From positions 19,282,001 through 19,346,000 of the forward strand of contig NC_086384.1 of NCBI RefSeq assembly GCF_036588685.1: a stretch of 64,000 bases of DNA. Direction: 5' to 3'. This document shows positions 1,991 to 50,791 of this stretch, piece after piece. The stretch is from Mytilus trossulus (lineage: Eukaryota). Position numbers and translations under genes: made by a program. How positions within the stretch are numbered: position 1 is the first letter of the stretch; the number at the start of each line of letters is the position of its first letter. The notes below the pieces were generated by a model. The model saw only the letters and a program-made list of their open reading frames with translations, did no database searches and was not told the DNA's origin.

Positions 1991-2641
1991 TTTATTATAT
2001 AAGGTCAGCTGTACCAAAGATAGTAGAAACCATAAAAATTATTTTTTTATCGATGGAGATTTAAACAAAGATTGTTCAAAATTGTTGCAGCACCAACATA
2101 CTGACCATTAAGATGACGATACCCTCGAGATAAAAAGCCTGTTCTAAATCTCTACATTTCTAGGTCAAAATTTCAAATTAACTTTCACTTCTATAACTAA
2201 ATCTATAATATTCGTTTTACACATTTCAGGAAAAATAACCTTAAAAAACATCACGGCCAACAATACATGTTAATATGAATTTAGATAGATATTTAAGACA
2301 ATCTATTGACGTCAGTAAATGATATTCTTAATGTTATTAATATTTATTTTTGAATAAATTGACAAATATATTTTCCTTTTATATACTTGATAATTTTGTA
2401 ACTGATAAATTCAAAGTTTATAGTTTACCTTCAATTTTCTTAACTTATTTCCATCGATCGAATTCTAATCATTAAACACAACTTTATTCTATGCTATGAT
2501 GAAAAATATTTCGAATTATTTAATTTGAGGTGATTGGGATCAGGCCATCATTCTATCAGAGTACGAATCAATCATGGTGCTTGTTAACATGTTAGTATTG
2601 GAGCAGAGTGTGAAAAGTACTGTGCTCCTAGAAATAGTATT

Positions 2642-2940: not shown

Positions 2941-3391
2941 CAATATATCTAACAATATACTTCACGTTTACGAAACCTACTACTAACATATATAATTATG
3001 TCGAACATTAAAACATATTTAACTTTGAGAAATGTTTAAAGATCTAACATTGCAATCCGTTTTTAATTAGAAAGCTATAACGGATACCAATAATGACTAG
3101 TATAAAATCATGCAAACAGTACAACCAACGGCCTGATCTATATATGTCAGAAATATGACAGTTGGTATTCCTTCGCTTGGTGTTTTCGAGTTTTTAATTT
3201 TTCCACTTGTTAGGGACTTTGCGATAAGATTTTTTCTCGGAGTTCATTTTTTATTTATTTTTTTTCATTTTTTATTATAAACGAGAAACGGGCAACCACA
3301 TCATTTAACGAGAAACAATTATGAAACACGTTAACAAACGAGAAACACTTATGAACCATAACAACAAACGACAACATCAGATTGCTGACTT

Positions 3392-3833
3392 ATAATTCTG
3401 GTACCTTTGATAACTAATTATGTAGACGAAACGCGCGTCTGACGAATTAAATTATAAGCCTGGCACCTTCGATAAATATTCACACTATTGGTTTGATTCC
3501 ACTGCTGGTGGACGTTTCGTCCCCGATGGTATCACCAACCAAGTAGTCAGCATTTCGAAGTTGGCGTGAATATCAATGATACGTTTTTTTTAAATAAATT
3601 TATTGTTTGCAAAAGTATGAATTATTTGAAATATTTACGATTATCCTATCCTAGGCATAGATAACCTTAGTCGTTTTGGCATAACTGTTTTGGATTTTTG
3701 GTCCTCACTGCTTTTCAGCTTTGTACTTGTTTGGCTTTCTAACTATTTTGATCTGAGCGTCACTAACGAGTCGTGTGTAGAAGAAACACGCGGCTGGAAT
3801 ATTAAACTATCAGCCTGGTACCTTTGATAAATA
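3392..3833 (+). mobile_element. Retrozyme monomer, degenerate (UAUGU-loop subfamily)
   Basis: Half hammerhead tgtagacgaaacgcgcgtctgacg at 3421 and a mutated one at ~3757-3810, 355 bp apart. Ends in cctggtacctttgataaatat. Confidence 0.8.
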
Positions 3834-5483
3834 TAAGAACAGGTTCAAACAAATGCAGTGGGTTTAAATTTTTTAATATGTACCTATTAATGCTTCTTTC
3901 TAGCGCACCATTTATTTAACCTTAATATTCAGCAAGGCGTTTTTCTAAAAAGCTCTTATTTATGTACAAATGCATCAAAGACAAATACACAGTCAATCTG
4001 CATTGTAAAATGAGTATAACGCTTTATGTATCAAAAACGTTTCTTAATTTTCTTTCATTGTTTTCTTATGCTCAAACCAAATCATTCGAAAGCCAAAGAT
4101 AAGAGCTTTCCAACCGAAAAGGGAATACAAATAAAACTTGCTTGACAATCATGTCGACCACTCGTTGTTAATGAGGACTGACCGACACTAAGCTGGTGTG
4201 TCAACAAGTGCTTGTAAATGAAAATAGCAGTTAATAAATTTCGTGCTATCGACGCGATCTTCATAATAACGAACTTAATCGTGAATTCTAAAACCAAAAC
4301 GCTTGAACGGCTATCATATCTCCAACCAAAATATGATCAAAAAGGAGTTAATAAACGTACAGAAAGTAAGAACTTTACTTTCTTTATAATTTTTAAACAG
4401 AGAATTAAAACAACAATTAGTAATAAAATTATTTTATCACCAAACCAATGGTACTGAGCTGATGATACCCTCGGGAAAACTGACCACAGGGTATCGATAT
4501 GTGCTAGTGAATTGAAAAAAATAAAAACACTTTATTAAAAACATGCGTCCACAGCACATCTCTGGTTTCCATTAATTGAGAAAACTAAAACCTAAAAGTA
4601 AAAAGGCCAAGGATTTGTAGAACCGTTACGCATGAATAGCTATAAAATCAAAAGGAACATAAATTTGTCAAATTAATCTAAGGCCAATTTCTGAGTTGAT
4701 TAAACCTTAGAATCGAAAGTCCGACAGTAGGGTTATTATTAGAAAAGTGTGGTTTTTGATAAACCACCCGCAAAGACTGAAAAAAAATATTGTTTTGATC
4801 ACGATGATTTTACTTTTCAAAGTATGATATAAGATAAAAGTGATATAATGTGAATTTACTTGTTGCCATTTATTAACATCAATATAGCCTTCACTTTCAT
4901 ATTTTAATTTATAATACCCATTTAACACCTTGCAGGGGAAATATCCTTAAAACATAGACCGTTCAGCAACTCAAGGTCATATCAATTTAGACATTTACTT
5001 AAGTCGACCCATTGACGTCAGCATATGCTATTTGTTATCGTTTTTATTTTTTGGTGCTAAATGAAATGACAAACATATTTTTCCTTTATGTAACTAAATT
5101 AAAAGAAACTAAGTTATTTTTAAGAACACACATATCAAAAAGGAAATATTTGTTTTAGACAATAGGCCTGAATATAAGAGTTCTTAGATAAAAAAAAATA
5201 CTAAGAGTAGCACTTAACTGTACATAATTATCGTCACAGTATCCAAATTGTACCGAGCACTTAAACTGCAACCATTAAGCAAAAAAGCGGCCAATGATAC
5301 GGTTTTTCATAGACTAAACAATTTGTATCATTATAATTTGAATTAAGAAACGATGATAGTACGTCGGAAGGGGATTTTACCCCTGTTAAAAGAGAGTCAA
5401 ATTTCATGCACGTAAACGACACCCTTGTAAAAATAGGAGATATTTTCAAAATATTATAGATTCTTAACTTTCATATTCTTTAA

Positions 5484-8640: not shown

Positions 8641-9697
8641 ACAAATGTTAAAGCATCTTGAAAATTTCAGTTTGAGAGATTTTCTTGTTACAATCATAGT
8701 AATTCTTATTTCATTGGATGCATCTTGTATTTAAGTTATTTAAGTTATATTTTTGTGATTTTACTTTTTCTCATACGCAGTTGAAATTTGTATAATGCTA
8801 CTAAAGTGGAAGAAATAATGATTTCAGAATTAAAATCGTCTCTTTATATAAATATATAAATATATATATATAAATATATTCCGGTTATGAGATACTGTGT
8901 ATATCAAATTCGAGGTTAATATCTGAAAATGACGCGGAGGAAGTCGTGTCGGTTGTTTCTTAAATTTCTAGTTCTACGGAAAGTATGAATGTCAGAAACG
9001 TTATGATTGTTAATGGAAAGAACACCATCAATATATCTGAAAGTAAAATTGAATAACCGGGCTTCTTTAATCTTTTTAATTAGAAAAATTCTAAAAATGA
9101 TAAGAGTTCGACAAGGAGATGCACACAGTTTGTTTCAATAGAAATGCCGACAATTTCTTGAAAAGTCTACATCTAAATTAAACAAATATGTTTTCAATAA
9201 AAAAAAAAACCTGCAGCATGCTATATCTCGTTCCTCTGTAAAGCAAACTTATTTTTCAAGTTCATACTTTACTCTAGGTTTTGTAAAAGTTGTGTACTAA
9301 TGTGTAAAATATTTCGAATTATTTAAATTTAGTTGATGCAGATCAGGTATGCATTCCATCAGAGTTGTAAACCGTCATATGTGAAGATTTTCAAAATGTT
9401 GGTAATGAATCAGGATGCGAATTGTACTATGTTTTCTGATATATATTGCAATACAAATATATATAAAACAATATTCTTGTTTCAAGTAAAACAAATTACT
9501 ACCAGGAACCTGCTGTTAACCTATATGTCAAACATAAAAATAAATTCGTTTACCTAAATGTTTATAGGTCTAAGGATTTTTGTATTTTGATTGAATTAAG
9601 TGATAATGATACAAACAAATGTGCTATTTTTATTGAAAAAGAAACACAGGCATTAAATTTAATTCAAAATAAAAATTAATAGGTCTTTCAAATTTCT

Positions 9698-11280: not shown

Positions 11281-12882
11281 AAATAAAGACGGGTGCCATA
11301 TGTGAATTAGGATTATATCATATAGCATGTACATTTAGTACATGATTAGAATAATATCAGTTTTACTTATAGCTGTTACTGAATATATAAATTATGAAGA
11401 TACCAAATAAAAATCACAAACCATATGATCGTTTGAAAACCCTCCTTAGAAGCACGAAAGATACAAGAGGTACAGTCAAACCCATAGATTGAAAATAAAT
11501 TGACAACACCATTTCCATATGTTAAGGTATGTAACAAGGCGTGCACAAATTCAAATCATAAAAATACAAATTGTTAAGTCTATTGAAACTTGTACTCTAT
11601 CCGTTGCTTTTTTGCTAAATGATTTCAATGTGGGTACTCGGTACAATTGGATATTTTGTCGTTAATTATATAAATATACATGTAAATGTTAGAAATCTGG
11701 ATGATTTAACAATTCTTATATTCAGGCCAATCGTTTGAAAAAAAATCATTTCTTTTTTATATGTGATTTATTTCAATAAACCTTCAGTCTATTGTATCTT
11801 TGTTATAAAAGGAAAAAATATTTTTTGTCATTTAGCACCAAAAAATAAGAAAGTTACAAATATCATATGCTGACGTCAATGGATGGACATAAATATATAT
11901 TCAATTGATATGAACTTGTGTTGTTGCAAAGGGATATGTTTTAAGGTTATTTTCTCTGAAAGGTGTTAAATGGGAAACAAAAATCAAATTATGAAAGTGA
12001 AGGCTACATTTAATATTTTTTAAAAGAAAGATTCAGATTTTATTACTGTCAGCAAACTCTGAAAAGAAAAATCATGATGAACAAAACAATTAATATGTTT
12101 TTTTTGTATTTGCAGATGATTTACAAAAAAACTTTCGACATAAAACCCTTGCTTTTGGAATTTAATCTCTAATAGATATCATCAACTCAGAAGTTAACAA
12201 GAAAATAAGGTTCCAACTTCAACTGTCAAAGTTGGCCTTAGATGAATTTGACTATTTGTTGCTTCTTTTGATCTGATACCTCTTAATGCGTTTAAGTTGG
12301 GCAAATCCTTGGCTTTCCAATTTTATGTTTTAGTTTTCCAAATCAAGGTAAATCCAGATAAGAGCTTTAGACGCATGATATTAATAAAATGTTTATTTAT
12401 TTTGGTTTTTCGATTACCAGTACACGTCACTAGATCGATACACTGTTTGTGGATTGTTTTCACTGAGGGTATAATCAACTCAATAACAATTGATTCCGTG
12501 CTTAGATAGTTTTATAACAAATTTGGGGACATCGCTTTTAAATTTCAAAATTATTAACTTTTCAAAACACTACCATCTATTAAAAGGAGATTATTAAAGG
12601 AATCAAAAGAGCAAATATATATATAGGTCACCGAGCTTAATTTCGAGATATAAGCCTTTGAAATTTTTGCGGGAAATTTTTTCTCTTGACTTTTCATAGC
12701 TTTATTACAATACAATACAATACAATACAAATATGTTTATTATAGTGACATTGTGTATAACAAATTATGTACAATATTGAAATATTTCAATTAAATTACA
12801 CCCGGCCCAATGGACCTATAAGTCACTTCAAATCGATACTATATTATTAATTCAGATTGTCATCAGGAGTTTTATATACATG

Positions 12883-15800
12883 TTAATTATTTAAATATAA
12901 GTGCTGTCTGCGTTTTGTAAATGAATGTTCTAAGAATCGAGCTGTTTTTCGAGGATATTCTGACAATAATAAATTTAACTTTTCACTGTTATTCAAATTT
13001 AATACGGTTTCACCAAGTCCAGAGAATAATTGATTACGTAGTCCATTGTAAAATTGGCATTCAATCAGAAAGTGTAGTTCATTTTCAATATGTCCGGAGT
13101 CGCACATTCTACATATCCGTTGGTATTCTGGCTCACCAACAAAACGTCCTGTTTCTAATCTTAGCGGAAGAATGCCACATCTAAACTGGGCCAGTACCGA
13201 TCTTTCTCTACGTTTTAAGTTTTGTTTAACATATGTTTCTGTTGAATATGTCGATTTAAAAGTTCTATATGTACGAAGTTTCGGAAAGTTAGATAAGTTT
13301 GTATGCCATTGTGTTGCACATATATCCATAAGTTTGTTTCTGACGCTATTAACATCACATTTTAGCATTTGTTGAAAGTTATCATCCATACCAACTAAAG
13401 ACATTATTGTTCTTACACTTGATGACCAATTGTTCGTAGATAATTCGTAGTCCCATAGGAACACCCTTTTACAAAGTCTACTACTGTCCATGTCCATCAA
13501 TCGGTTCCAATATCTAACCATATTACACCAGCGACGTTCTTTTGAAGGTAACCATCCGACATCTCCGTTGATAGCCAGCTTTGGAGCAAACTTGTGAACT
13601 CCCAAAAAGTATCTTATGGCCTTGTTTTGAATAGTGTCGATACAATTTAAGTCTTTAAAACCCCACACTGAAGAACAGTAGTCGAGTATAGGTACAATAC
13701 AAGAGACATACAGTTTTTCATAAGTCTTTATACCAAATTCTTTTAAACTGTGTATCTTAGATATAATAGCTCCGAGTGCTCTTCCACCAGCTGCAGAAAG
13801 ATTTTCAGCATTCGATGTATAGTCTTTTTTCTCGTTAAAAATTACTCCAAGGTATTTATATTTGTCTATAATTTGCAAGATGTTCCCTCCAATTCTAAAC
13901 TGAAATTCGCTCCGTTTTTTGCGAGATGCTCTGAAGTGTACAACTTTTGACTTGTCTGTATTAATTAAGACTCTCCATTTTTTACACCATTCATGTAATT
14001 TATCTAGCATCTTTTGCATATCACATTTATTCTCGGCCATCAGAACAATATCGTCCGCATATAAAAGTAAGGACAATTTCGATTCTCCAATTTTAATACC
14101 AAGTTCAAGTTGGTTGATTTCATCTACAAGATCATCAATAAAAACAGAAAATAATGTCGGAGATAAATTATCACCTTGCTTTACACCAGAGGTACATAAA
14201 AACCAATCGGACATTTTATTGTTTAATCGAATACTTGCGGTTGTTTGCACATATAAACTTTTAATAGAGTTATATATTTTCCCATCAATATTATTAAGCA
14301 ACAGTTTGTACAGCAACAAATCACGATCTACGAAATCAAAAGCCTTTTTTAGATCAATAAATGTGGCAATAACATTAGGATTGTTTTGTATTATGCTGTT
14401 AAGGGTGAATATATGATCCTCACATGAACGATTTTTACGAAAACCGTTTTGTTCCTCAGAAAGTAAATCATTGTCCTCCAGATATGAAGACACTCTATTG
14501 TTTATAAATCCACTGTACAGCTTCGAAACACACGACAACAAACTGATTCCTCGATAGTGAAGTGGAATGCGTTTATCTGATGATTTGTCTTTAAGTATCG
14601 GACAGGTGATGGCCTGGTGCCATAATGATGGTACAATGCTTGTGTCGAAAACTAGTTGAAACATAGAATATAGGACGGCGATAACGTTTTCTGTCTTCAA
14701 TACTTCATAAGGGATATAATCCATTCCACACTATTTTCCGTTTTTTTTTCTTGAGACAAGTCGCCTTATTTCATCTATAGTCATAGCTGAATTCAATTCT
14801 TCATTTTCAATTAACAAAGGATTGATCATTCTTTCTTCTAATAAGACTTTATGACTAATGGCATATTTTTGAAAATTACCATCGAATTCGTCCGCTGAAC
14901 TATCCATATTATATATATTTTCAAAATCTATTTTCCATTTTTCTAAAACGACCTTTCCATCACTAACAATTTCACCATCTTTGTCATATATTTCCATTGG
15001 AATAGAGGAATGTCTACGAGGCCCTAGCTGTTTGATTTTGTTCCAGAAATCCGTAGGATTATTCGTCGTCATAGTTTCAATGTCAGTGCACATACTTTGT
15101 TTATATTGCCTTTCATATTGGCGTAGCTTGCGGTCAAAAGTTTTTTGCGTTAACTGAAATTTTGTTCTTAGTTCATTTTTCATATTGGTACGTCCTTTAA
15201 ACTTCAAGTACTGTTTTTCTTTTAAATGCATATCATTCCATAATGTTTGTAGGTCATCGTTCGAAAATTGCTTTTTCACCTTTAGCCGTTTTTTCGAGGA
15301 TCCACTGGTGTTAAAAACTGGAATTTTATCGTTCATCTCCTGTATTATTATATCACAAAGTTCCGTGTATATATTATCTATATTTTCTTGAGTTTCTCTA
15401 GTTTGTTCAATGTGACTTATAACATTTTGCAATGCAATTTTACATATATCGGAGGAAAACATATCATTTGGCATTAATTTCAATTTAAATCGCTTCTTTG
15501 ATTGAGTAGGGTCGCCTGGCATGCTGTCGGTAAACATGGATTTTATAGATCTAAATTTTGTTACCAAGACTGAATGATCCGGAAGTTTGCTACGTTTACC
15601 AAGGAGGTTAAAAAGATTTGCCTTTTCTACAATAGATCTTGTTGTGATTGTTTCAAACGAAATACACTGGTCTAGATAATCTTGCGGGACACAGATGTAA
15701 TCTACCACGGATTTCCCTCTACCTGAAATGAATGTGAAGTTATCTTTATCTTCATCGAATCTTCCATTCAAGACGCACATTTTCGATTCGTTCAAAAATT

Positions 15801-16383
15801 CCAAAAAGGTGTTTCCATGTTGGTTAACGGTTTTATCAAGCGATAATCGTGACGGTAATTTATCAAAATCAGAATAATCCTTCAGTGATCCTATTCTTGA
15901 GTTAAAATCGCCACAGAGAAAAATAGCGTCTGTATCGCATTGTTCATATATATCAGATAAGATGTGTGCAAAATATCCTTGAGAGTCTCTTCCCCAAACT
16001 GAGTTTTCAGGAGGTAGGTAACACGAAAATACAATAAAGTTAAAATCTGTGCTTTTTGACTGAAATTTACCACAAATAACGCCATCTCGTATAATGTCAA
16101 TCGTTTCATATTTATATTCTTCAAAAATCCAGTTTTTAATCAAGAGTCCTACACCACCTGATGCCTTTGGGGCATTCCTATGTATATATTGTCTATTAAA
16201 TCCTTTCCAACTATAACCATCAACTTCAATTTCATCGATTTCTTTCAAATGCGTTTCACAGATACTAAAAATGTCTGCATTCACTTCCTTTAAAATTGCT
16301 GTACGTAATTCCTTATTATTTTGAGTCCATCCGCAAATATTTAAGTGTCCCAATCTAATAGTACCATTGTTCCGGGGGTTGTC
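12883..16383 (-). pseudogene. LINE ORF2 (apurinic endonuclease + reverse transcriptase + zinc knuckle) with one internal TAG
   Basis: APE motifs HLNICG, ICETHL, GGVG, YLPP, GDFNS, VVDY, PDH. RT motifs YRGISLL, QNGFR, FIDLKKAFD, GVKQGD, YADD, YKYLG. ORFs 14731-16353 and 12883-14724 are in the same frame, separated by TAG at 14733-14731 inside KNGK*CGMD. Confidence 0.93.
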
Positions 16384-17144
16384 CTAATCGTCCTTAGTTT
16401 CCATGTCAGTATTGTCAGTATCACTAACCGGTTCATTCGATTTTTTAAGAATTTTCCCGTTTGCGGTAACTCTGTACGATTTGCCTTGTGGTAATTCCCG
16501 TAAAATCGTACGCGTATTTGTTTCGATTAGTCGTTCAATACGGGATTTAGAGGATTGGATGTACACATGTTTGTAATAACTAACATCTTTTAGCTTGTGT
16601 TTATTTCTGAGTATAAGTATTTTCTGATCCTGACTTTGAAAACTGATTTTAACGAGACCTGGTTTGTTGTGAAATCTTGTTGTCAAGCGTTGTGTTGCAA
16701 CCACTGATATTTGAGAAGAAACTTCGCCTAAGCTGTCTATTATCTGTTGAACTTTGTCTGGGAGATTTTCGCCTTCAGTAAATGGTAAATTTTTTACTAT
16801 TACCGTTACGTCATTATCGTTTAACGGGTCTGCTGGTTGTGTATTACCTTTAACACCTTGATCATTATATTGATTGTTGAGGCCGTGGTCAGTAGGATTA
16901 GTAATACAGTTTTCAACTTGACCAACACGTACTGGAAGTGTTTGAACTGAGTTCACCAAGTCATCTAAACGTGACGATTCTTTAGCTATGTTTAAATAAA
17001 TATCATCTTTTAATATTCGAATTTTTTCGTCAATTGTAGATATAACATCATTTCTTAGCTTGTCAATTTTCGATTCAAACATCTTTTTCATACTGTCTTG
17101 ACCATCTTTAATTTCTTTAATACTTTCAACAATTGTTTTTATTG
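16384..17144 (-). CDS. LINE ORF1 fragment (coiled coil + RRM-like + C-terminal domain), N-terminus missing
   Basis: Heptad-rich segment, then VIVKNLPFTEGENL and VKISF...ILRNKHKLK...VYIQ, typical of LINE ORF1. The first few residues in the ORF track come from flanking DNA. Confidence 0.8.
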
Positions 17145-17365
17145 TTATTATTGACAAGTTAAAGTCCTCAAAAACTAATAAAAAGTGATTAAAATGTTTT
17201 AAGACTTTATCAGACAGCTAATCATTATACATGTAAAAGAATTATAAGAAAAAAAATGGGGGTCACCAGGCAAAATTTGTTAACTTCAGGCATTCAAATG
17301 GACAAAACCAGAGGATTCCGAAAATCTTACCAAAATTCCAAAACACGACAAGCGAGCTTCCGTAA
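17145..17365. mobile_element. Probable MITE remnant split by the LINE (other part ~12590-12707)
   Basis: The two flanks join across the TTATTA duplication (catagctTTATTAttgacaag) and both carry a GGTCACC motif. Family not determined. Confidence 0.4.
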
Positions 17366-19928: not shown

Positions 19929-20091
19929 GAAATAATTCTATCCTGCCATGCTCTATGCTCATTTTAACATGGGTAGGCATTATATTTGTTAATATCTTAA
20001 TACCGAGCGTTAGCGAGGTATTAAATGTTTACAAATATAATGCCTACCCATGTTAAAATGAGCATAGAGCATGGCAGGATAGAATTATTTC
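19929..20091. repeat. Long palindrome: perfect 61-bp inverted arms
   Basis: 19929-19989 is the exact reverse complement of 20031-20091. An inner TTAATACC/GGTATTAA stem closes a GAGCGTTAGCGA loop. Confidence 0.95.
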
Positions 20092-21795
20092 GATTCTAAT
20101 AGGAATATTTGAACTCTTTCACTTCGAAGCGGACCTATAGTAGACGCTCGGAATGTCACCATTTTGATTTCATGAGCCAAAAACGTTATAGGAAATCAGC
20201 AGTTTATCAATAAAAAAAGAACAGAAGCATTTAAACTTACTTTTAGAATGTTTCTATTTAATTTCCTAGCGAGCAACACCAACAAAAATGTCCATTTATG
20301 ATCTCTGGCGTTGTTCAAAATTCATCTGACGTTGCAATTTCAATTGTGACGTCAATCACGTGCAGCCCATGTTCTATTTGAATTAGAACACGGCTGTGTT
20401 TACAAAGCGTAATAAGGACGTCATATTAGAATTTGGTTTCAACTCCCGAAGGTAGAGTTGACCTTATCAAATTTGATTATTTTTCAAGGTCTCTTCTGAT
20501 AAAATGGTTCTTCCCGAGTTTAGGTTGGGTACAGCTTTGGCTTTCCAACATTTAGTTTAAGCATTATATATTTATTTATAAAATAAAGATGAATCAAGAG
20601 AAGCGCTTTCGACGCATGCTAATAATGAAGTGTTTTCTTTTTCGATTTTCTGGATAGAAACACTGTTTGTGGTCGGTTTTTTTGAAGGGTATCATCAACT
20701 CAGTAATAGTTGGTTCAGTTCTGTGATAGTTTTTTAACACGTTTTGATTTTCATACCCTGTTTATAAATGATATAAAAAAAGCAAGGCTCTTTCTTTTTT
20801 CTGGCAAAGTTTAATTTGTATTTTTGAGGTCACTTTTCATGTGGAACAGGTTTTGATTACCCTTCCGGAGCACCTGAGATCACCCCAATGTTTTGGTGGG
20901 GTTCGTGTGGTTTATTCTTTAGTTTTCTATGTGTGTCATGTGAACTAATATTTGTTTGTTTGCCTTTTTTGCATCTTAAGCCATGGACGGGTCAGTTTAT
21001 TTTCGATTTATGAGTTTGACTGTCCCTTTGGTATCTTTCGTCTCTTTTTTTATCGTAAAACTTTTTAAGTGTTTCGGTACTAACATTAGCTTCCAAACTA
21101 TTGTTTCTGTCTATTCATAACATCTCTTTGATTGCACGAAATTGTAAAATATTTATTTTCATTTACTAACATGTCATGGAAAATTTATATTTATTTGATT
21201 ATTTGGTAAAACAGTCTTATTTGTGTGCGCTATTTCTTACCTAATGGAAGATTTATATGTATACCAAAAATTTCATAACCTCATGGAATATTTGTATATT
21301 TGCCCTTTCGTACCTCATGGGATATTTGTATGTATAGTTACCATTTCGTACATCGTGGAAAATTTGTATATATGTATGTATACCATTTTGTACCTCATGG
21401 ACGATTTGTGTATACCATTTTGTACCACATGGAAAATTTGTATATATAGTTACCATTTCGTACCTCGTGAAAGATTTGTATGTATGTATGTTCATTATAC
21501 CATTTTGTACCTCATGGACGATTTGTGTATACCATTTTGTACCACATGGAAAATTTGTATGTATAGTTACCGTTTCGTACCTCGTGAAAGATTTGTATGT
21601 AAGTATGTATACCATTTTGTACCTCATTTGCGGTGTGTGTATTTAATTTTGTACCACATGGACAATTCGTATGTATAGTTACCGTTTCGTACCTTGTGGA
21701 AGATTTGTAAGTATGTTTGTATACCGTTTTGTACCACATGGAAATTTTGAATGTATATAAACTTATCCTAGATACCAGGACTAAATTTTGTATAT

Positions 21796-21839
21796 ACGCC
21801 AGACGCGCGTTTCGTCTACAAAAGACTCATCAGTGACGC
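21796..21839 (-). ncRNA. Type I hammerhead ribozyme, intact core
   Basis: The minus strand reads GCGUCA CUGAUGA GUCU-UUUGU-AGAC GAAA C-GCGC-G UC^ UGGCGU. Stem I, stem II, the conserved CUGAUGA/GAAA core and the GUC cleavage triplet are all present. Stem III is minimal, with palindromic ACGCGCGU. Confidence 0.92.
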
Positions 21840-22243
21840 TCGAATCCAAAAAAAGTAAAAAAAAAGGCCAAATTAAGTACGAAGTTGAAGAGCATTGAGG
21901 ACCAAAATTCCTAAACGTTTTGCCAAATCCAGCTTAGTTAATCTATGCCTGAGGTAGAAAAGCCTTAGTATTTCAAAAATTCTTAATTTTGTAAACAGTT
22001 AATTTATAAATATAACCATATCAATGATAATTAAAAAAGTGCTGACTACTGGGCTGGTGATACCCTCGGAGAAATTAATCTCCACCAGCAGTGACATCGA
22101 CCCAGTGGTTGTAAATAAACTCATCATAGATACCAGGACTAAATTTTGTACATACGTCAGGCGCGTTTCGTCTACAAAAGACTCATCAGTGACGCTCGAA
22201 TCCCAAAAAAGTTAAAATGGCCAAATATAGTACGAAGTTGAAG

Positions 22244-22332
22244 TTTAATTGCTACTTGTTTCTGGATCCTTATTGTGAATATGTGTTTATAATTTATACT
22301 TGTATTTATCATAATAAAATATTGTTTACACT
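22244..22332 (+). mobile_element. 89-bp insertion with 9-bp TSD, probably a 5'-truncated LINE 3' end
   Basis: AAGTTGAAG is duplicated at 22235-22243 and 22333-22341. The insert ends AATAAAatattgtttacact. Confidence 0.7.
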
Positions 22333-22611
22333 AAGTTGAAGAGCATTGAGGACCAAAATTCCTAAAAGTTTTGCCAAATCCAGCTAAGTTAATATATGCC
22401 TGAGGTAGAAAAGCCTAAGTATTTCAAAAATTCTAAATTTTGTAAACAGTTAATTTATAAATATAACCATATCAATGATAATTCATGTAGCAAAAAATGT
22501 TGACTACTGGGCTGGTGATACCCTCGGGGAAATTAATCTCCACCAGCAGTGACATCGACCAAGTGGTTGTAAATAAACTCATCATAGATACCAGGACTAA
22601 ATTTTGTATAT

Positions 22612-22656
22612 ACACCAGACAAGCGTTTCGTTTACAAAAGACTCATCAGTGACGCT
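22612..22656 (-). ncRNA. Hammerhead copy, core intact, stem II mismatch and stem III palindrome lost
   Basis: GCGUCA CUGAUGA GUCU-UUUGU-AAAC GAAA C-GCUU-G UC UGGUGU on the minus strand. Confidence 0.7.
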
Positions 22657-25600
22657 CGAATAAAAAAAAAAGTTAAAAAGGCAAAATTAAGTACGAGGTT
22701 GAAGAGCATTGGGTATAGTTACCGTTTCGTACCTCGTGGAAGATTTGTAAGAATGTATGTATACCATTTTGTACCTCATGAACGATGTGTGTATACAATT
22801 TTGTACCACATGGAAAATTTGTATGTATAGTTACCATTTCGTACTTCGTGAAAGATTTGTATGTATGTATGTATGTATACAATTTTGTACCTCATTGACG
22901 GTGTGTGTATTCAATTTTGTACCACATGGAAAATTTGTATGTATAGTTACCATTTCTTACCTCGTGGAAGATTAATAAGTACATGTATGTATGTATACCA
23001 TTTTGGACCTCATGGACGATTTGTATGTATATCAAATGTAAAACACATATTTTGTCGATGAGCTACCAAATGGTAGATTCATTTGCCCTAAAGGGTAAGA
23101 AACGGTAAATGTTGGGTTTGAAATGGTAAATGTTGGGTACGAAGTAATAATTTTGGGTTCGAAATGGAAGAGGTACGTAATGGTCAAAGTACGAAATGAC
23201 TAACTACCGATACATCAGCTTATGAACCGTAAGCCCCGCGGACCTCATTTAATCAGTAGCCAGTGGATCGTTGTTGACGTGATTGTAAACCATTTTTTAT
23301 TCTTCGTTTAAGATACCAAACGGAAACTATTGTTCTACCTACTTCATGCAAAATTGAATGGAATGAATGTGGCAATTCTTAGGACCATTGTTAGTTGCAT
23401 AGCTCTTAACCTGTATGGGTCTCACAAAACCTTGGCGTTCATAGTTTGGGTTTGAGCATTCATACAGAATGAAAAAAGTTTTGAAAACACTTCGGACGAA
23501 CAAAATTAAAATGCGTTATGTTCATTTGACAATTTTAGCAAACATTTATCTTTGATAAGTTTTAATATAAATAAAAAAATCATCAAATATACGTCTGCCT
23601 GAATATTGGTGTAAATTAAAATGTCCTGAAGAAAGAAGCATAAATTGCATCCCCTGGTGCCATTCGTTAGAAGAAGAATAAAAAACAACAACCAAATATA
23701 GCAGTAAACAAGTAAAAGCAGATGCATTGAAATTCATTGTTCATATTTCTTGTGTTGCAATAAAATAAAGATAACATCATATAAAAATAAAATAACTGCA
23801 TTCATCATGAAAAAATAACAATAGGTTATCGCCATAGCTCTCGAATGTTTAGAATAAAAAAATCAAACCCAACATATACTTTCGATTTAAGGATATGCTT
23901 TTCTTCTTGTTTAAAGCTCTCACATATATATTTTTTATTATCAATTATTATACAAAGCAACATAAGCAACACGACGGGTGAACAGAACGTTCATAGTATA
24001 TACCTACAGAAAACGAGTACTAAAGTATTCATGGAAACATCGAAAGTGACCATTTGTCAATTTTTTAAATCTTAGCAATGCAAATATGTTATATGCAGCA
24101 ATTTCTTTAAATAACGAAGAGTAAGCATGGGATATTGCAGATTTGTTCTAAATATTTTGAGAAGTAAAAAAAACACCATTTTGTTATGATTCAGTACGAA
24201 TCGAATCAAATTGATGGAATTTTATAGTGAATAAGGATACCACTGCAAAATAAACACAAAATGGAAACTTCAGTCCGAAAAATTGATAAAATTTGAGGGG
24301 GGGAGTCGATAGGACGCATTTTGGTACTCTCATTTTACACAAAGTCACACTTACAATTATTTTTATTAACATAAAGCATTAAATACCGATCAAAAAGGAA
24401 AACTGTACTGCTATGCAAGTCATTATATTATATCATGATTTCCTTCCGCTGAATATCACTTGATAATTGCTGTCTTTCTTTTATCTGAACCCGATACACA
24501 CTTTACTTTTGTAAAGATCATAAATTTCATAAAGTGAAGGATTTGATAAATTTAATAATTTTATGAGAATTGTGTCTCTTTTTTTGGCATAATAAAGAAG
24601 CAAGAAATCCTTGTTACATGTTTTTTTAGTGTTTTATTTCATGTTCATAAACATCCGATTTCCTTTTTTTTTTGTAGTTTATAGTTTGAAGAGAAAAGGC
24701 AAAGACGCAATCATATACATTATTAAGTAGTATGTATAATATGCAGACATATCCAAGTTCTTGTTTCACTGAACTAATAATTTTTTTTTTGTACTTGATT
24801 TTGATTTAGCCACATTGGGAAACAGTCATCGTTTGCTATACGTTACATCCCATATAAATACTGAAGAAAAAAATCAATGAACCTAAATGATATACCCTGA
24901 ACAAAACCCAATTGGAATCGAAAAAAGTCATTTTTCTTTAGAAATATTATCTTGACATATTACATGTATAAATATTAGTTAAATCTAGTTGACACATTTA
25001 AAATTCATATTTGAATTAATAAACAACGCACATTTCAATATATAATAGACAAAAAGAATATAAGAACAATAAACTCCAAAAACAAACTAAAACAAACAAA
25101 CAAAAAAATTAAATCAATCTACTCAAGTTATATTTTTTAGAATGACAATTATTGTAGACGTATTTTTCAATAATCGCAATTTAAAACTAATTTGTACATA
25201 TATGTTTTCATTCAATTTGAAGAATTGCTTTAGCCGTGTGACATGATTTTTTTATCAACTGCCTGTGGCTATTATCGCATGCTTTTCTGTAACGTTATCG
25301 CTGGACATTTCGACCTCAATCGCCAAATGACGAATAATCTAACTCAATGGTACTTCTTTTTAGTGTATAAATCTTAACAAAGATGGATAAGAAAAAATAT
25401 TAGGAATCATGAACCATGAACATGTATAATCAAAAATTGCAAAGAAAATATTACACATGCATTTTCAAAGTTTTGTCTGTATGTTTTCTGTTGAAGCTCT
25501 TTGGATGATATCATGACCTAGGGCTAATAAGGGGTCTGATATGGAAAATGCCATGGTATAATCTATATTTATCGCACGCATAAAATGGAGATGTAACGTG

Positions 25601-33269: not shown

Positions 33270-33855
33270 TTATTGGTTCTTCAATGCTCTTCAACTTTGT
33301 TCTTGTTAGACTTTATAGCTAATTTGATCTGAGCGTAACTGATGAGTCTTATGTAGACGAAATGGGTTTCTGGCGTATTTAATTGTAATACTGGTACATT
33401 TGATAATATGTACACCACTGGCCATGGGTCGAAGCCACTGCTGGTTGAAGTTTTGTTTACGAGCAATGTAGTCAGCACTTAAGTGTTGACAATATTATCA
33501 ATTATATGGTATTTTTTTTATAGTTTCCTGCTAACAACTCTTTGAATTGTTCGAAAAACTAAGGATTTTCTTATCCCAGGCATAGATTACCTTAGCCGTA
33601 TTTGCAAAACTTTTTGGAATTTTTGGTCTTCAATGCTCTTCAACTTTGTACATGTTTGGCTTCATATAGATATAAGAAGATGTGGTGTGAGTGCCAATGA
33701 GACAACTCTCCATCCAAACAACAATTTAAAAATTAAACCATTATAGGTTAAAGTACGGATAACTATTTTGATCTGAGCGTCACTGATAAGTTTTATGTAG
33801 ACGAAACGCCCGTCTGGCTTATCAAATTATAATCCAGGTACTTTTGATTACTAAT
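33270..33855 (+). mobile_element. Retrozyme ~1.3-mer with two mutated hammerheads and a ~95-bp foreign insertion
   Basis: Hammerheads at 33333-33376 (core intact, stem III broken) and ~33777-33820 (CUGAUAA). An inserted repeat-tail fragment lies at ~33665-33758. Confidence 0.8.
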
Positions 33856-35529: not shown

Positions 35530-37145
35530 TAGTTCGTTCTTATGTTATACTGTTACGCCACTGTCGTAGGTAAGGGATTGGTTGGGATCCTGCTTGCATG
35601 TATAGCACCGCCACATTTGGTTTGTATGTACCTGTCCTTAGCCGAGCGCCTGTACTTCAGTAGGTGCAGTTTGTTGATGTGTAACATATTTATTTTTCGT
35701 TCATATTTTGATAATTAATTAGGCCGTTATGTTTCGAAATTGAACTGTTTTACATTTGTCATTTCGATACCTGTTAAGGCTGACTATCCGGTAAAGGCTT
35801 TGTGCATTGTTGAAGGGTGTACGGTGACCTATAGTTGTTAGTTTCTGTGTCATTTGGTCTCTTGTGGAGACTTAACTAAATCTGTAGTATCCTTTATCTT
35901 TAGTTCGATGGGATAGATTCGTTCAACATAGTCAACAAATTTTGCATTGTTTATTGGAAGAACATCATCTATATAGCGGAACGTAAAGTTGAAGGATTTC
36001 GCGAAATTCTTATCTTTCTTCCTCAGAAATTCATGTATGAAGTCGGCTTCATAAAAATAATAAATAACAAGTCGACAAAAAGACGGGCACAATTGGCTTT
36101 CATTAGAATTCCGACAGTCTGTTGAAAAACAGGTCCTCCTAACATAACAAATATGTTGTCAATTAAAAAATCAAGCATCTTGATAATGTCATCTTCAGAA
36201 AATGTCTTGTTTGAATCAGAGTGATCTATCCCTTCCCAATTCAAGATGCTTGTATTTACGTTCGCCATTTGTTTTAGTAAAACAAAGTAATACTAATGTA
36301 AAGGAGAAGCTGGACTTCCGCTTAAACATGTACATGATTTGCAGGGTTTCAAGATAATGACAACTTAAACATTTATAATACTTTCCATACAGATTTGTTC
36401 AACCCGAAATAGGTAACATGCAAATAATATATATCTTGATAATGTCCGTGTGAGTAAATGAGAATATAACGCAACGACAAAGAAAACCCATAGTTTTTAT
36501 AGTGTGCTGTTACGCCACTGTTTCAGATTTGGGAAGGGTTAAGTGCCAACACATTGTTTAAACCTGTCACATTGTCTAAAATGTGTCTGTAGTACAGTGT
36601 TTGTCGTTGATTTACGTCTGTCATATTTCATTTGTTTCTCGGAATTATTTTGTTATTAATAAGACCGTTAGTTTTCTAATTTGAAATAATGTGTTTACAT
36701 TATTCATTTCGTGGCCATTTATATATATAGCCTTTGCGGTATGGGTGTTTATCATTGTTGAATACCGTATGGTTTCCCATAATCGCTCATATTCACAGGC
36801 ACTTTATTTGAACTTTGGTGTTTAAAAGTGTCAACTGAATCTCATAGTTCTTTCTTATGTTGTACTATAAAACAATTTTCCCATGTTAAGGGGAGGGTTG
36901 AGATCCTGCTTTCAGCTTTAACTCCGCCACATTTTATATGTAAGTCCCTGTCCCAAGTCAGGAGCCTATAATTCAGTTGTTGTCAGTTGTTGATGCGTTA
37001 CATATTTGGTTTTCGTTCAATTTTTTAAAATATAAATTTTCTCGTTTGAATTGTTTTACATTTGTCACTTCATGTTCCTTTACAGCGGACTATGCGGTAT
37101 GGGCTTTTCTCATTTTTGAAATCCGTACATTTAAGGAATAACTGT
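35530..37145 (+). repeat. Three degenerate copies of a related SINE-like repeat (35530-35870, 36490-36820, 36845-37140) around the PLE fragment
   Basis: agggttgggatcctgc..ccgccacatt..cctgtcccaagtcaggagcct..ctgactatgcggtatgggcttt is repeated. Tails also occur at ~55080-55190 and 62820-62980. Confidence 0.65.
35875..36270 (-). pseudogene. Penelope-like element reverse transcriptase fragment (frameshifted)
   Basis: Overlapping ORFs give FLIDNIFV..GGPVFQQTVGILMKANCA / YEADFIHEFL..SFNFTFRYIDDVLPINN..IYPIELKIKDTTD, a PLE-type RT core with YIDD. Confidence 0.88.
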
Positions 37146-40515: not shown

Positions 40516-41085
40516 AATAAAGGCAACAGTAGTATACCGCTGTTCAAAACTCATAAATCCATGGACAAAAAAAAACAAACATCGTGGTAACAAACTGAAA
40601 CCGATGGAAACGCATTAAATATAAGAGGAGAACAACGACACAACATTTAAATGTAATACACACAGAAACGGAATAAGCATTAGAAAAATTATGAGAATAA
40701 AAAATATAACATCAAAACCAAATACATGAATTTGGGATAGATAAGTACCGTCACACGTCTTATCGCAATGTGAATTTACACTAAAAAATAAGAGAAAACA
40801 AACGACACAACGGAAACACAACGTTAAAATGTAACACACACAGAAACGAACTATTACATAACAATGGCCATATTCCTGACTTGGTACAAGACATTTTTAA
40901 AGAAACAAATGGTGGGTTAAACCTGGTTTTGTGGCATGCCAAACCTCCCTCTTTTATGGCCATGTGAAATATAACATTGCAATGACAAGACAACATTACA
41001 GGACTATAATATAAATAAATAGGAGAACACAATTGACAAAGAAACACACGAATAAAAGCTAACAAAAGGCAACAAGTTTAAAATT
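40516..41085 (-). repeat. Dispersed repeat ending in ...ctactgttgcctttattt (copies ~7975-8276 +, 42670-42865 +, 45940-46130 -)
   Basis: Reverse-complement identity with 7975-8276 (aaattcatgtattt..gatgttatattt; gatttatgagttt.gaacag.ggtat). Confidence 0.7.
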
Positions 41086-41145
41086 TTGATACGCCAGAAG
41101 TGCATTTTGTCCACACAAGACTTACTAGTGACGCCCAGATACAAT
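41085..41145 (-). mobile_element. Highly degenerate hammerhead/retrozyme fragment
   Basis: Minus strand gcgtcactagtaagtcttgtgtggacaaaatgcacttctggcgt aligns to the hammerhead consensus of this window. Confidence 0.6.
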
Positions 41146-41369
41146 TTTTTTTTATGTTTTTTGGAATAGACAGAAAAAATATTACAGTCATTTCTTATAA
41201 TTTACTTCTAAATTCGATTTAAAACCGTAGAAAACCATGAAAAAACGTTGATGACGTCACGGTCACATGACTAAATTATGTCTATGGGCTCATAACAAAA
41301 TAACGTCAGCCAATCAGAAGACCCGTTACATCCAAAATTAAATTGTAGAAACAAAAGAAGTAAGCACTA

Positions 41370-42022
41370 TCCTTTAACTTATTTTCTGCTATTTAGATGA
41401 TGTTCTCTCACTAAAAAAATCAAAATTTGGAGACTATTTTTAACGCATCTCTGAACTAGAGATAAAGGATACAACAGATACAGGCAAGTCTGTCTCATAT
41501 CTTGACTTGTATCTTTGAAATTAACAATTATGGTCAGCACTTTACGACAAAAGAGATGATTTTAGCTTCCCAACTGTTAACTTTCCATTTTTATGTAGCA
41601 ATCATCCAGAAGCGCCTGCATACGGAGTCTCTATCTCCCAATTGATACGACATTACAGGGCTTGTATTTCCTATAATGATTTCTTTGACAGTTTCTAGGA
41701 TAATATCGTAAATGTTCCTTGTGTCGTAACTACAATCCCATTCGCTTTTCACAAATGTGACCTATCGAATTTACCGGGTTTGTGATAATATGAGCAACAC
41801 AACAACTGCCACATGTGGAGCAGGATCTGCTTATCCTTCCAAAGCACCTGATATCACCCCAGGTTTTGGTGGGGTTCGTGTTGCTTTATCTTTAGTTTTC
41901 TATGTTATGTCTTGTGTACTATTATTTTTCTGTTTGTCTTTTTCTTTTCTAGCCAAGGCGTTGTCATTTTAGTTTCGATCCATGAGTTTACATGTCCCTC
42001 TGGTATATTTCGCCCATCTTTT
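41370..42022 (+). mobile_element. Penelope-like RT C-terminal fragment plus its 3' non-coding end
   Basis: Translates YLDDVLSL..ELEIKDTTDT..SYLDL..LYDKRDDFSFPTVNFPFLCSN..PAYGV.ISQLIR..RAC, followed by the ggagcaggatctgctta...ggtggggttcgtgttgc tail. Confidence 0.85.
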
Positions 42023-43704
42023 ATTTAATGCTTTAATACTAAATTTCCACCATTTCCAAACATAGGCTTTATCAATTAAAAATTAACATACAAAATAAAA
42101 TAACGATACATACTTAGACATTAATTCAAACAAACAACTTTAAATGTCAACAAAAGGGATCTATAAAACCAGAATGTCTAAAACGTTTTACAAAAATAAG
42201 TTAAAAAGTAAATACGCTGTCGATTCGGACATTATTCTCTTTTCAGGGTTTATCATTATGTATTACCCCGAAAAATATTGTTCTACCTCTGAGATTGTAT
42301 TGATAAAAAGTAAAATCACAAAAATATTGAATTCCTAGGAAAATTCAAAATGAAAAGTCCCTAGAATCAAATGGCAAAATCAAACGATAAAACACATCAA
42401 AAGAATGGACAACAACTGTCATATTCCGGACTTGGTACAGGCATTTTCAAATTGTGATATTTCCTCTAGTCAAGGTATTGTAACATCAATCAACTTTAGA
42501 AACATTATTTTAGGATAAATACTATAAGTAGTTAATAAACTTTATGAGGACAACGTTTCAGTATATTATCATTGTCTTTAACATAAAGCGCGAGGTTTGG
42601 CATCCAAAAAGCAGGTTCAACCCATCATCGTTACTTAAAATGTCATGTACCAAGTAATGACTTTGGCAGTTGCTATTTAATAGTTCGTTTCTATGTATGT
42701 TGTATTGTCGTTTGATTTATGTTGCACTGCATTGTTTTTGTTATTTCGTTGTTTTTTCTAATACAGTTGATGTGCTTCATTAGGTTTTAGTTTGTAACCT
42801 GGGGTTGTTATCTCTCATTCGTTTTTTATTGTTTCCTTTGACTATTGACTATTGATGCCTTTATTTTTTAGCATGTAAATTAAAGCGGTTATATATAAAG
42901 AGACCAAATACATCAAGTGAAAACATAATGAAAGTTACTAGCATATACTTATCAATGATAGCAACTGTATCAAAGTTTGTTTGTTGTTGTTTGCTTTACG
43001 CCAAAGTTTGTTTGTAGACAATCCTTCAAGATTAACAGGTTATTAATTAAAGGGCAGTGTTTTGATAACTAATTTGGCGTGAAAGTATTTGTTATTAGTG
43101 ACCTTGTAGTACAAATATATTGACATGATCCGTTCCTATGTAGTAATGTGTAGGAATGTTTGTATTAATGAATTCTAAGGAAGGATTGGTGTTGTTAATT
43201 TGTTGAATGAATAAGAATATGAAGTTCCTGTTCGATAAACCCATTTTAAAACAATGTCAAAATGTAGGAGAAGAGTTAGAGGGGGAGGTAAAGATACAAT
43301 ATTATTAAAATGAATGAATGTGTCCAACCATTGCTTATCGAATGGGTCGTTTCTATGTATGTAGATGTTTGTTTTTGTAGCACTTCGGTATTCCTGTTCC
43401 TTTATTTTTCCTTATTTTCCTCTATAATTGTATGTTTCCCTCTTATAATGGATATGTTTCCCTCAGTTTTTGGTTTGTAACCCGACTTTCTTTCCTCTTA
43501 ATCGATTTATGACATGCTATTGTTGTCTTCATTTACAAGACAGTGCTCATACAAAGGACATGTATTTTAATCCAATTGGTAAAGTACTTTTACCGATTTC
43601 AAAGAGATGTGACGGTAACACATAATTTTAATAACGTTTGAAAAATAAAAATTGAAAATGTTTTTCAAATGTATAATAAAATAACGGTTTGATACTAGTA
43701 ATAG

Positions 43705-48745: not shown

Positions 48746-50791
48746 GTGAGTCACATTATTATTATTTATTTAATTAATTATTTCTGCATTAATTTTAATG
48801 GTTATTTTTTTTCAATATTTATTTAATATTGATAAGTGAAAAAGATAATTCAAAGTCAAATCTATATTTTGTCAACGTTAGTCTATTGAACTGCAAGAAA
48901 ATATTGTCTGCATTAATATGATATTTTTAATAGGTGTCAATTTTTACTGGTTAATTTTTGTTCTTGCAACATATTAAAATGGAGAGATTATGTATAGCTG
49001 TCATTAGTACAACTTTTTATTAAGACCAATTTGACAGATATGTGACTTTTTAATAAATTTCACATAATGTATCTCAAAAATTACGATTCTATATATATTC
49101 AAATTTCTAAGGGCAACTTTCAACTTCTTTCAACTAATATTTATTTGGAATAGAATCGAAAGTTACTTATTTGTTATTTAGTTATTTAGTTATTCATCTA
49201 TTTATTTATTTATTTAATAATTCATTTAAAGTAATATTATAACGTTATTTGAACTTGTCATCAGTGTACATGTCAGTATAGAGTAGTATTTGCCGAACAA
49301 GAGAAGACTTATCATTAGCGCATGTAGAAAAGTAAAAGTTTTAAAGACAAAGATGTACTTAAACATCAGTGTTATTTCTTGAAATGAACAAACAAACAAT
49401 ATATTGTACACTTAAAAATGATTTGTATTGTTCATATATTTGAACGAGCAAAAAATCACAAAGGTATGAGATAGACGGATATATTAGATAGATGGACAAA
49501 CATTTATTTCCATTCAGAGAACTCATGAAGTGCAATCAAATCACTACTTTCATATTTCAGTCATGACAGTGTTATTAGTATTTAATATACGCAAATAGTC
49601 CTTGAAATCTGATAAGAATGACGACCCCTAAAATGTGAAAATAGAAAATATTCGACTTATATACAACATTATCTGCAATCGAATTTAAAATACACAAATA
49701 TTAAAGAATTCTTGAGATAACGTTTACTCATTTATCAATAACCGTCTTGGCGGGCAAAACAAATAAATACATTTTGAAACTATCTAATTATATAATTTAT
49801 ATAGAATCTATAAAATTTACTAATTGAAATTTTCGACTTTGTTTTATTTTTATAAGTATATATATATTTGTTAAGGCGTACGTGACACAGACGCCGTGAC
49901 CTGACTCAGTGTGTCAGTCGTTAACCGAAATAGCATCCATACAATAATTACTGATATAAATGCACTATTGAACGCCTGAAGGTAAAGAGATGCAGTGAGA
50001 CGGAAATTCTATTTCGATTTTTTTCACATCGTATGATTAAATATAGCACAATTTAATCAAAGTTTCCTAAAATAGCGTAATCTGCAGCGCATTGATTGTT
50101 GAGGCGTACTTTGCAGACGTTCGTGTTGGAAAAGGGTCGACAGAACTTTTTGTCAAAAGAACTGGATGATTGACGCAAATATCTTATTGATTTGATAGCA
50201 GGGAATCAGCAACCGTATTCTTTGTCCTGAAATACTCCTGGCCTTGGAAGGAATGTTGATTCTCATTGGCTGATTGTTTCTCTATATAGACTGCACACTA
50301 ACTGGCGCGTGCAATGATCAGAAGATAGACAAACGACAGATGTCGATTCCTGTATTGATTTTTCAAAGTACATTAAATTGATATTGAATTAAGTATAAAT
50401 CATGCAAGGCAAATCGACCGCACGTTATTGCAATTAATCTCGTTTATATTTAACCAAAAAGAGGAATGAACTCGTAATAAGTATATCTGGAGCAGTAGGT
50501 CAAAGTCATAACTCAATTGTATCATAGGTCGATGGCGTTTATTGTTACAAATATACGCCACGTCAGCCTTGGGATAGATTATTCTTACATGATTAAATAT
50601 TATTTTAATTAAGTAGTTATAACACAATAGCTGTCGAGAAATTAGTCTGCACTGCAAAGTATGTACTACACGTACTTAGTTACTTGTGTTAAGGAATGTT
50701 ATAAAAACTTAAATCAAAAATAATTTAATGTTTGTTCACTTTGACATTTTATTAATTTAACTTGTTTTATTTTATAGATAAACGAGCAAAC

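Follow-up and report, generated by a model that had tools for sequence, protein, structure and literature searches.

We analysed a 64,000-nucleotide stretch of the Mytilus trossulus genome (contig NC_086384.1 of assembly GCF_036588685.1, positions 19,282,001 to 19,346,000 of the forward strand; hereafter the window), focusing on a hammerhead-bearing tandem repeat, or retrozyme, on its minus strand at 21758–22712. Our results suggest that a Naiad-type reverse transcriptase (RT) likely wrote this insertion into a host satellite. The element itself is already known, being by its sequence a member of the published Mytilus family of retrozymes without long terminal repeats (non-LTR retrozymes). One clue goes beyond the published work: copies of the family stop just before a hairpin that, from sequence comparison, also appears to open Naiad retrotransposons, a clade of Penelope-like elements (PLEs) without canonical hammerheads.

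Retrozyme copies share a 3′ end past the cut site

Nine insertions in the window bear a hammerhead, and in eight of them the last unit ends 37–52 nt past the cut site, the exception being a heavily decayed copy (41081–41134); the 5′ ends are scattered over unit positions 15–337. This clustering of 3′ ends has a binomial probability of 2.6e-11 for a 13-nt window, picked after the data had been seen. The same end was found in five of the six informative elements from eight metagenome loci, three of which (L002, L005 and L008) reach contig ends. The window count was made without three weak profile matches that cover the hairpin region only (2071–2130, 4390–4479 and 12409–12485) and a further match at 20650–20705, none of which has a hammerhead; with the first three included, the common end is seen in 8 of 12. 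In addition, among 32 contig pieces listed from four RNA libraries, six exit the repeat at 21750–21759, and several of these continue into long stretches of unrelated sequence, the pattern expected if other copies end at this point.

A fixed internal 3′ end together with variable 5′ truncation is a feature expected of a non-autonomous partner of Naiad or another PLE. Penelope-like insertions can carry an optional tail of 30–40 bp; here the 3′ ends of the 15 elements spread across 37–52 nt and form no second cluster, and an inverted upstream copy, also typical of PLE insertions, was not found at this locus. Because the copies end past the cut site, the template would have been continuous across it, pointing to an RNA that was either circularized by ligation or still an uncut multimer, not to a cut linear monomer. 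Elsewhere in the window, a short 3′-tail copy (3389–3418) lies directly upstream of a 5′-truncated insertion, as if copying had restarted at the common start point, and the retrozyme insertion at 33273–33853 is itself interrupted by ~95 bp of another repeat (33660–33757).

The common end adjoins a Naiad-like hairpin

The 59 nt that follow the common end form three helices with 18 pairs; in eight aligned rows 91.7% of the cells are paired, compared with 34–52% when the structure is slid, and two pairs have changed on both sides between the subfamilies. The core motif of this hairpin, CTGCTGGTGGA, occurs 11 times in the supplement of the Naiad study (PMC8557442), always in a Naiad consensus and no further in than ~190 nt, in 10 cases within the first ~60 nt; this is a count of motif occurrences and a minimum, as line breaks in that text can hide more. 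The consensuses with this motif come from bivalves, hemichordates and others. By eye, Naiad_Mgal opens with the letters that follow the retrozyme end point, its outer helix differing by paired changes; on this comparison a cis element common to the autonomous family stands at the end point, a further feature expected of a non-autonomous partner. The first ~70 nt of the Naiad consensuses match the retrozyme hairpin, and Naiads also share tandem or partial-tandem arrangement, 5′ truncation and AT-rich targets, but they are 3.4–4.4 kb long, encode an endonuclease and an RT and have no canonical hammerheads, whereas the retrozyme is non-coding with one hammerhead per unit (PMC8557442). Unlike the retrozyme hairpin, those of Naiad_Mgal and Naiad_Mcor enclose an additional stem of ~23 nt.

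The hairpin was also found outside this family. Locus L145 (2060–2330, minus strand) holds one copy of a second mussel family, with a ~250-bp unit comprising the hairpin, a spacer and a different, minimal hammerhead; this copy stops just short of the next hairpin. The same contig has an RT fragment at 427–813, and the minimal-hammerhead family was not found in the window. Locus L115 (the same as L146 12346–14086) has a minimal hammerhead-like motif followed, at the contig end, by ~20 tandem 74-bp copies of the hairpin alone. Both loci come from a deep-sea mussel symbiont assembly and are probably host contamination, with host DNA joined to bacterial genes in L115. A 19-base hairpin pattern matched 11 viral and 120 prokaryote loci, and the 20 best hairpin-profile matches were all in L115; the other contexts listed have the look of chance matches in GC-rich DNA, and no Naiad with its reading frame was recovered among them.

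Within the window, hairpin relics that lack a hammerhead and have other upstream sequence occur at 12427–12484 (plus), 4452–4485 (minus), 20650–20705 (plus) and 2071–2130 (minus), and from their sequence are likely another non-autonomous or truncated Naiad-type family. Broken RT pieces like the L145 fragment, together with a high-copy repeat, lie at 35862–36276 (minus), 41349–42025 (plus), 9003–9204 (minus) and 20851–21055 (plus). By eye, this repeat seems to resemble Naiad 3′ ends. A Naiad identity of the RT relics found no confirmation in short protein motifs, long runs being broken in the supplement text, and Pfam gave no assignment.

Family identity and anatomy of the insertion

The unit is collinear with the 375-nt retrozyme of Mytilus galloprovincialis (PMC4918200, Additional file 11), and by eye 44 of the 45 letters in the hammerhead stretch are identical, which bears out an earlier preliminary description of the array as a mussel non-LTR retrozyme. 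It has the properties by which such elements are recognized, namely tandem units each with a hammerhead motif, a GC content below 50% (0.33 across 20001–24000), a target-site duplication of more than 4 bp, no coding capacity (no reading frame of 120 or more amino acids within the insertion) and no LTR. It is like the M. galloprovincialis element in sequence family, in its 350–390-bp unit and two-subfamily type I hammerhead, and in being tandem, AT-rich, flanked by a duplication of more than 4 bp and free of a coding frame (PMC4918200, PMC7229834). Unlike that element, the present copy comes from another Mytilus genome, is decayed, retains one of three ribozymes intact and carries a 98-bp insert. 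In the related mussel genome ~5,000 such hammerheads fall into two families of 350–390-bp repeats, and members of the family are transcribed, self-cleaving and abundant mostly as circles (PMC7229834); the portions of the two papers covered here describe neither a common 3′ end nor a driver family (PMC4918200, PMC7229834).

The insertion holds 2.4 units, in transcript order a partial unit with hammerhead 3, unit A with hammerhead 2, unit B with hammerhead 1 and the tail (Table 1). Its limits in the preliminary description proved to be its exact boundaries, with GTATA abutting both ends. The ~360-bp monomers with a hammerhead each that had been proposed have to be amended: the units measure 358 and 458 nt, unit A returning to 360 nt once its 98-bp insert is subtracted, the middle motif is without GUC, and in the third stem II contains a C.A mismatch and stem III is not palindromic. 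No second copy of the 98-bp insert was found within the window.

Table 1 Features of the retrozyme insertion and its surroundings (window coordinates)
Feature	Position	Strand	Description
Whole retrozyme insertion	21758..22712	minus	955 bp: 5′ partial unit (95 nt), unit A (458 nt), unit B (358 nt) and 3′ tail (44 nt)
3′ tail past cut site	21758..21801	minus	44 nt; end point common to most copies
Hammerhead 1	21796..21839	minus	Type I, intact; cleavage predicted 3′ of C at 21802; descriptor and RF00163
Unit B	21802..22159	minus	358 nt, cut-site register
Naiad-like three-helix hairpin, unit B	22048..22106	minus	Directly after the common end point
Hammerhead 2	22154..22195	minus	Core and stem II intact; 2 nt lost at cleavage triplet, no GUC
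Unit A	22160..22617	minus	458 nt; 5.1% substitutions relative to unit B (18/353 columns)
Secondary insert in unit A	22244..22341	.	98 bp; 9-bp direct repeat at 22235–22243 and 22333–22341
Naiad-like hairpin, unit A	22506..22564	minus	Within unit A
Hammerhead 3	22612..22655	minus	GUC (C at 22618) and core retained; C.A mismatch in stem II; stem III reads ACGCUUGU; additional G.U in stem I
Left target-site duplication GTATA	21753..21757	plus	Repeat flank and empty-site comparison
Right target-site duplication GTATA	22713..22717	plus	Repeat flank and empty-site comparison
Host satellite split by insertion	21278..23024	.	112–117-bp units, 38-bp sub-repeats

One intact hammerhead in a decayed array

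Hammerhead 1 has the core elements CUGAUGA and GAAA, a stem II of GUCU/AGAC with the loop UUUGU, and an open helix I; stems I, II and III are 6, 4 and 2 bp long, stem III lying within ACGCGCGU. The cleavage triplet is GUC, with C17 at 21802, and the motif conforms to the rules of the class (CUGANGA and GAAA, a G10.1–C11.1 pair, and an NUH triplet with A15.1–U16.1). The minus-strand type I hammerhead with full core, GUC and 2-bp stem III that had been described at 21796–21839 was thus recovered at those exact coordinates by both a descriptor, with two matches in the window against 0.03 per shuffle (one match in 30 shuffles), and cmscan, which matched RF00163 across all model positions 1–45 (32.5 bits, E 3.4e-4). 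The Infernal check that had been proposed yielded the expected match at 1.5 bits under the gathering score of 34, and at that threshold an Rfam scan of the window gave no matches; intact relatives from metagenomes score 31–33 bits with this model.

Self-cleavage of hammerhead 1 after 21802 is plausible. Because a published mussel hammerhead cleaves as a monomer, at ~0.1 per min (PMC7229834), dimers are possible but not needed for cleavage. The window contains 14 related motifs, sorted by eye into seven with a UUUGU-type loop and flank and seven of the UAUGU type, in line with the dozen or so in two subfamilies first reported; hammerhead 1 is the only one of them to have kept core, stems and triplet together. 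A CCUGGUA motif ~22 nt beyond the cut site (21775–21781 and equivalents, minus strand) is kept in both subfamilies within an otherwise diverged tail and, with an upstream GUC or AUC, resembles the substrate strand of the Rfam hammerhead.

The other two hammerheads have decayed. Site 2 reads GAAACGCGC-C, with the GU of GUC gone, so that it has no U16.1, no NUH triplet and no regular helix III, although modelling suggests that hammerhead 2 could serve as the enzyme half on another strand. Hammerhead 3 is predicted to be weak or inactive, given its non-palindromic stem III and an active fold that would cost 17.3 kcal/mol, compared with 7.7 for hammerhead 1. Double-hammerhead folds, in which only site 1 is cleavable, were predicted at −31.5 versus −36.6 kcal/mol free for hammerhead 1 paired with itself and at −28.4 versus −30.6 kcal/mol free with hammerhead 2 as enzyme on hammerhead 1, both cheaper than the single-hammerhead active fold.

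Release of a monomer RNA between ribozymes, as first proposed for this array, runs against the loss of the middle cleavage site and the survival of one fully intact hammerhead in three. Two cleavable sites in succession are required for a monomer, and with the middle one lost this locus likely no longer releases a ~360-nt RNA. If the minus strand is read through today, its RNA would be cut once, at 21802; at most a piece of 816 nt would be released, and then only if site 3 still works. The array likewise falls outside a recent preprint's definition of an active retrozyme, which calls for two consecutive complete hammerheads (10.64898/2026.07.22.740005). Circular folds were no stabler than shuffles (z 0.15 for unit B, 1.63 for unit A and 1.07 for the 816-nt piece), which lends no support to a highly self-paired circle for this copy.

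Insertion into a host satellite

The retrozyme splits a satellite array, and the empty site is represented by TGTATGTATAGTTAC, which runs across the insertion point in three uninterrupted sister units and, with one change, in a fourth. The right junction is spanned without differences by a contig of one sequencing run, with 49 and 113 letters on its two sides, in what may be the source sample; a contig from a run with another organism label crosses the left junction with only 29 letters, below the bridging threshold of 31. The empty-site joint was absent among the matches listed for the DNA runs, whose summed depths are not usable as copy number. The satellite (21278–23024 and 23093–23210) has in its right flank short inverted copies of its motif, seen by eye, which suggests from sequence that the satellite is the inside of a non-autonomous DNA element.

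Origin of the insertion and alternative explanations

The common end and the adjoining Naiad-like hairpin would together imply internal priming by a Naiad RT on a circle or an uncut multimer, and there is a precedent for such a step. A Penelope-like RT nicks AT-rich DNA and begins reverse transcription inside its own RNA, at an AC-rich stem-loop downstream of a hammerhead, with genomic ends marking the RT start sites and hammerhead cleavage being dispensable (PMC11167929). This Anolis Poseidon resembles the mussel case in starting within the RNA downstream of the cut, in its AC-rich stem-loop, in its AT-rich target DNA and in genomic ends that coincide with starts; it differs in being autonomous and of another clade, and in starting ~85–92 nt past the cut, compared with ~45 nt here, and its start was demonstrated in vitro, whereas ours is deduced from copies (PMC11167929).

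By analogy, a template running unbroken through the cut site, whether circularized by ligation or left as an uncut multimer, would have presented its hairpin to a Naiad protein, which, once bound, would begin to copy immediately upstream of that structure. The protein would nick an AT-rich site, prime ~45 nt past the junction and copy 2.4 rounds; decay would later have erased site 2, impaired site 3 and brought in the 98-bp insert. We consider it reasonably probable, on balance, that events took this course with a retrozyme circle as the template and the AT-rich satellite as the target. In partial support of copying from one template, units A and B are mutually closest (5.1% substitutions, versus 7.4–9.0% to the nearest other copy) and share three substitutions and one short gap that are absent from six other rows.

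Several observations weigh against this account. Covariation in the hairpin is modest, its score being reached in 11–13 of 500 shuffles and its pair count in 305 of 500, and RNAalifold on a looser 11-row alignment gave four pairs in a single helix. The comparison with Naiad was made by eye, and mussel Penelope or Neptune elements that bear hammerheads may share the hairpin. The 3′-end statistics rest on 15 elements, a well-registered target-site duplication is present in only 2 of 11, and the 2-nt loss at site 2 is known from the assembly alone. For hammerhead 1 an inactive rod is predicted over the active fold by 7.7 kcal/mol, and four intact relatives behave alike (4.4–7.9 kcal/mol). Finally, the three hammerhead regions differ from one another by 8.8–13.3%, as much as from an independent copy (7.4–12.5%).

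Because of this last point an uncut multimer has to be considered as the template: the same Naiad-type priming could have acted on a linear multimer transcribed from another tandem array, with circles a by-product. The Penelope-like element studied in vitro needed no hammerhead cleavage and used uncut RNA as its main template (PMC11167929), the three hammerhead regions are as divergent mutually as from other loci, and the stem I variant UGACGU of site 2 also occurs in other copies. Against it stand the mutual closeness of units A and B, with letters absent from other rows, and the mostly circular state of mussel retrozyme RNA (PMC7229834), although a multimer from a homogeneous array is compatible with both. 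We regard a multimer template as rather unlikely. We give less credence to a driver of another kind, be it one of the Penelope, Neptune or Poseidon elements that bear hammerheads or a long interspersed nuclear element (LINE), with the Naiad likeness a mere relic of origin. Xenopus retrozymes group with the pseudo-LTRs (pLTRs) of hammerhead-bearing elements (10.64898/2026.07.22.740005), Naiads have no canonical hammerheads (PMC8557442) and the window does contain a LINE; however, the common end falls exactly at the position that matches the Naiad start, and the copies end without the poly(A) or microsatellite tail that would speak for a LINE, which makes such a driver improbable.

It also seems very improbable that the locus is still a working source of circles, releasing a ~358-nt monomer because the defect at site 2 is an assembly slip or merely slows the cut. 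Site 1 is intact, site 2 retains both core and stem II, and a double hammerhead formed by the two is predicted to cost little (the −28.4 versus −30.6 kcal/mol given above). Slow cleavage can occur at non-NUH triplets. However, only site 1 would be cleavable in that dimer, stem III of site 2 is unable to close in the monomer, and other changes near site 2 fit decay. Internal priming by a Naiad-type RT, followed by decay, is the account we prefer.

Library searches and neighbouring features

The exact 37-nt hammerhead pattern had no match in metagenomes, and a 25-nt version matched the eight metagenome loci described above and nothing in viral contigs or prokaryote genomes. Contigs from RNA libraries (four runs, three studies) span the repeat without its satellite flanks and with hardly any of the 98-bp insert; such contigs cannot show ends, strand or circles, and DNA may be present in the libraries. 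Because many of their letters differ, the listed pieces come, on their sequence, from other loci or species and are hence silent on expression of this locus.

No tRNA was found in the window. The LINE (12883–17217, minus strand) is nearly intact, with a first frame of 277 amino acids followed by endonuclease and RT frames in one phase, interrupted by single stop codons. At 59254–61413, 54 copies of a 40-bp unit with 92% identity begin 64 bp after a retrozyme fragment. An exon at 50756–52039 (plus strand) encodes a nuclear receptor, of which only the ligand-binding domain is present; its nearest named match, at 99% identity, is a protein of Mytilus californianus, in keeping with the Mytilus origin of the window, and its relatives carry the names Dax1/NR0B1-like or dissatisfaction-like.

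Implications for animal retrozymes

Taken alone, this locus has little weight, being one decayed copy in a family with ~5,000 hammerheads in a related mussel genome (PMC7229834). The common end and the Naiad hairpin bear instead on the question of which partner mobilizes animal retrozymes, for which a 2020 review gives no conserved motif identifying an autonomous partner (PMC7761336). A link between animal retrozymes and PLEs was proposed in 2020 and backed for vertebrates in 2026 by a preprint that ties vertebrate retrozymes to PLEs without a priming site (10.64898/2026.07.22.740005). Our reading agrees with that preprint in seeing PLEs both as the source of animal retrozymes and as what moves them; it differs in that the preprint deals mainly with vertebrates and its main text includes no molluscs, initiation site or Naiad link (10.64898/2026.07.22.740005). 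We did not find the common end or the Naiad hairpin link of mussel retrozymes in the literature searched, a search that lay outside subscription papers, the supplements of PMC7229834 (Figures S4, S5 and S9) and the tables of the preprint.

More broadly, mussel retrozymes may be chimeras in which a hammerhead has been joined to the start hairpin of Naiad, a proposition for and against which we find the evidence evenly poised. The hairpin would then act as an RT-loading signal that fixes a start on an otherwise endless circle, with a structure kept between the Naiads of bivalves and hemichordates, and would be enough for amplification alone, as the 74-bp array at L115 would exemplify. If this is true, it would be clear which element drives an animal circular-RNA retroelement and where its copying is primed, the hairpin would provide a ~60-nt tag for RT-driven insertion, and the mobilisation step would become directly testable in vitro.

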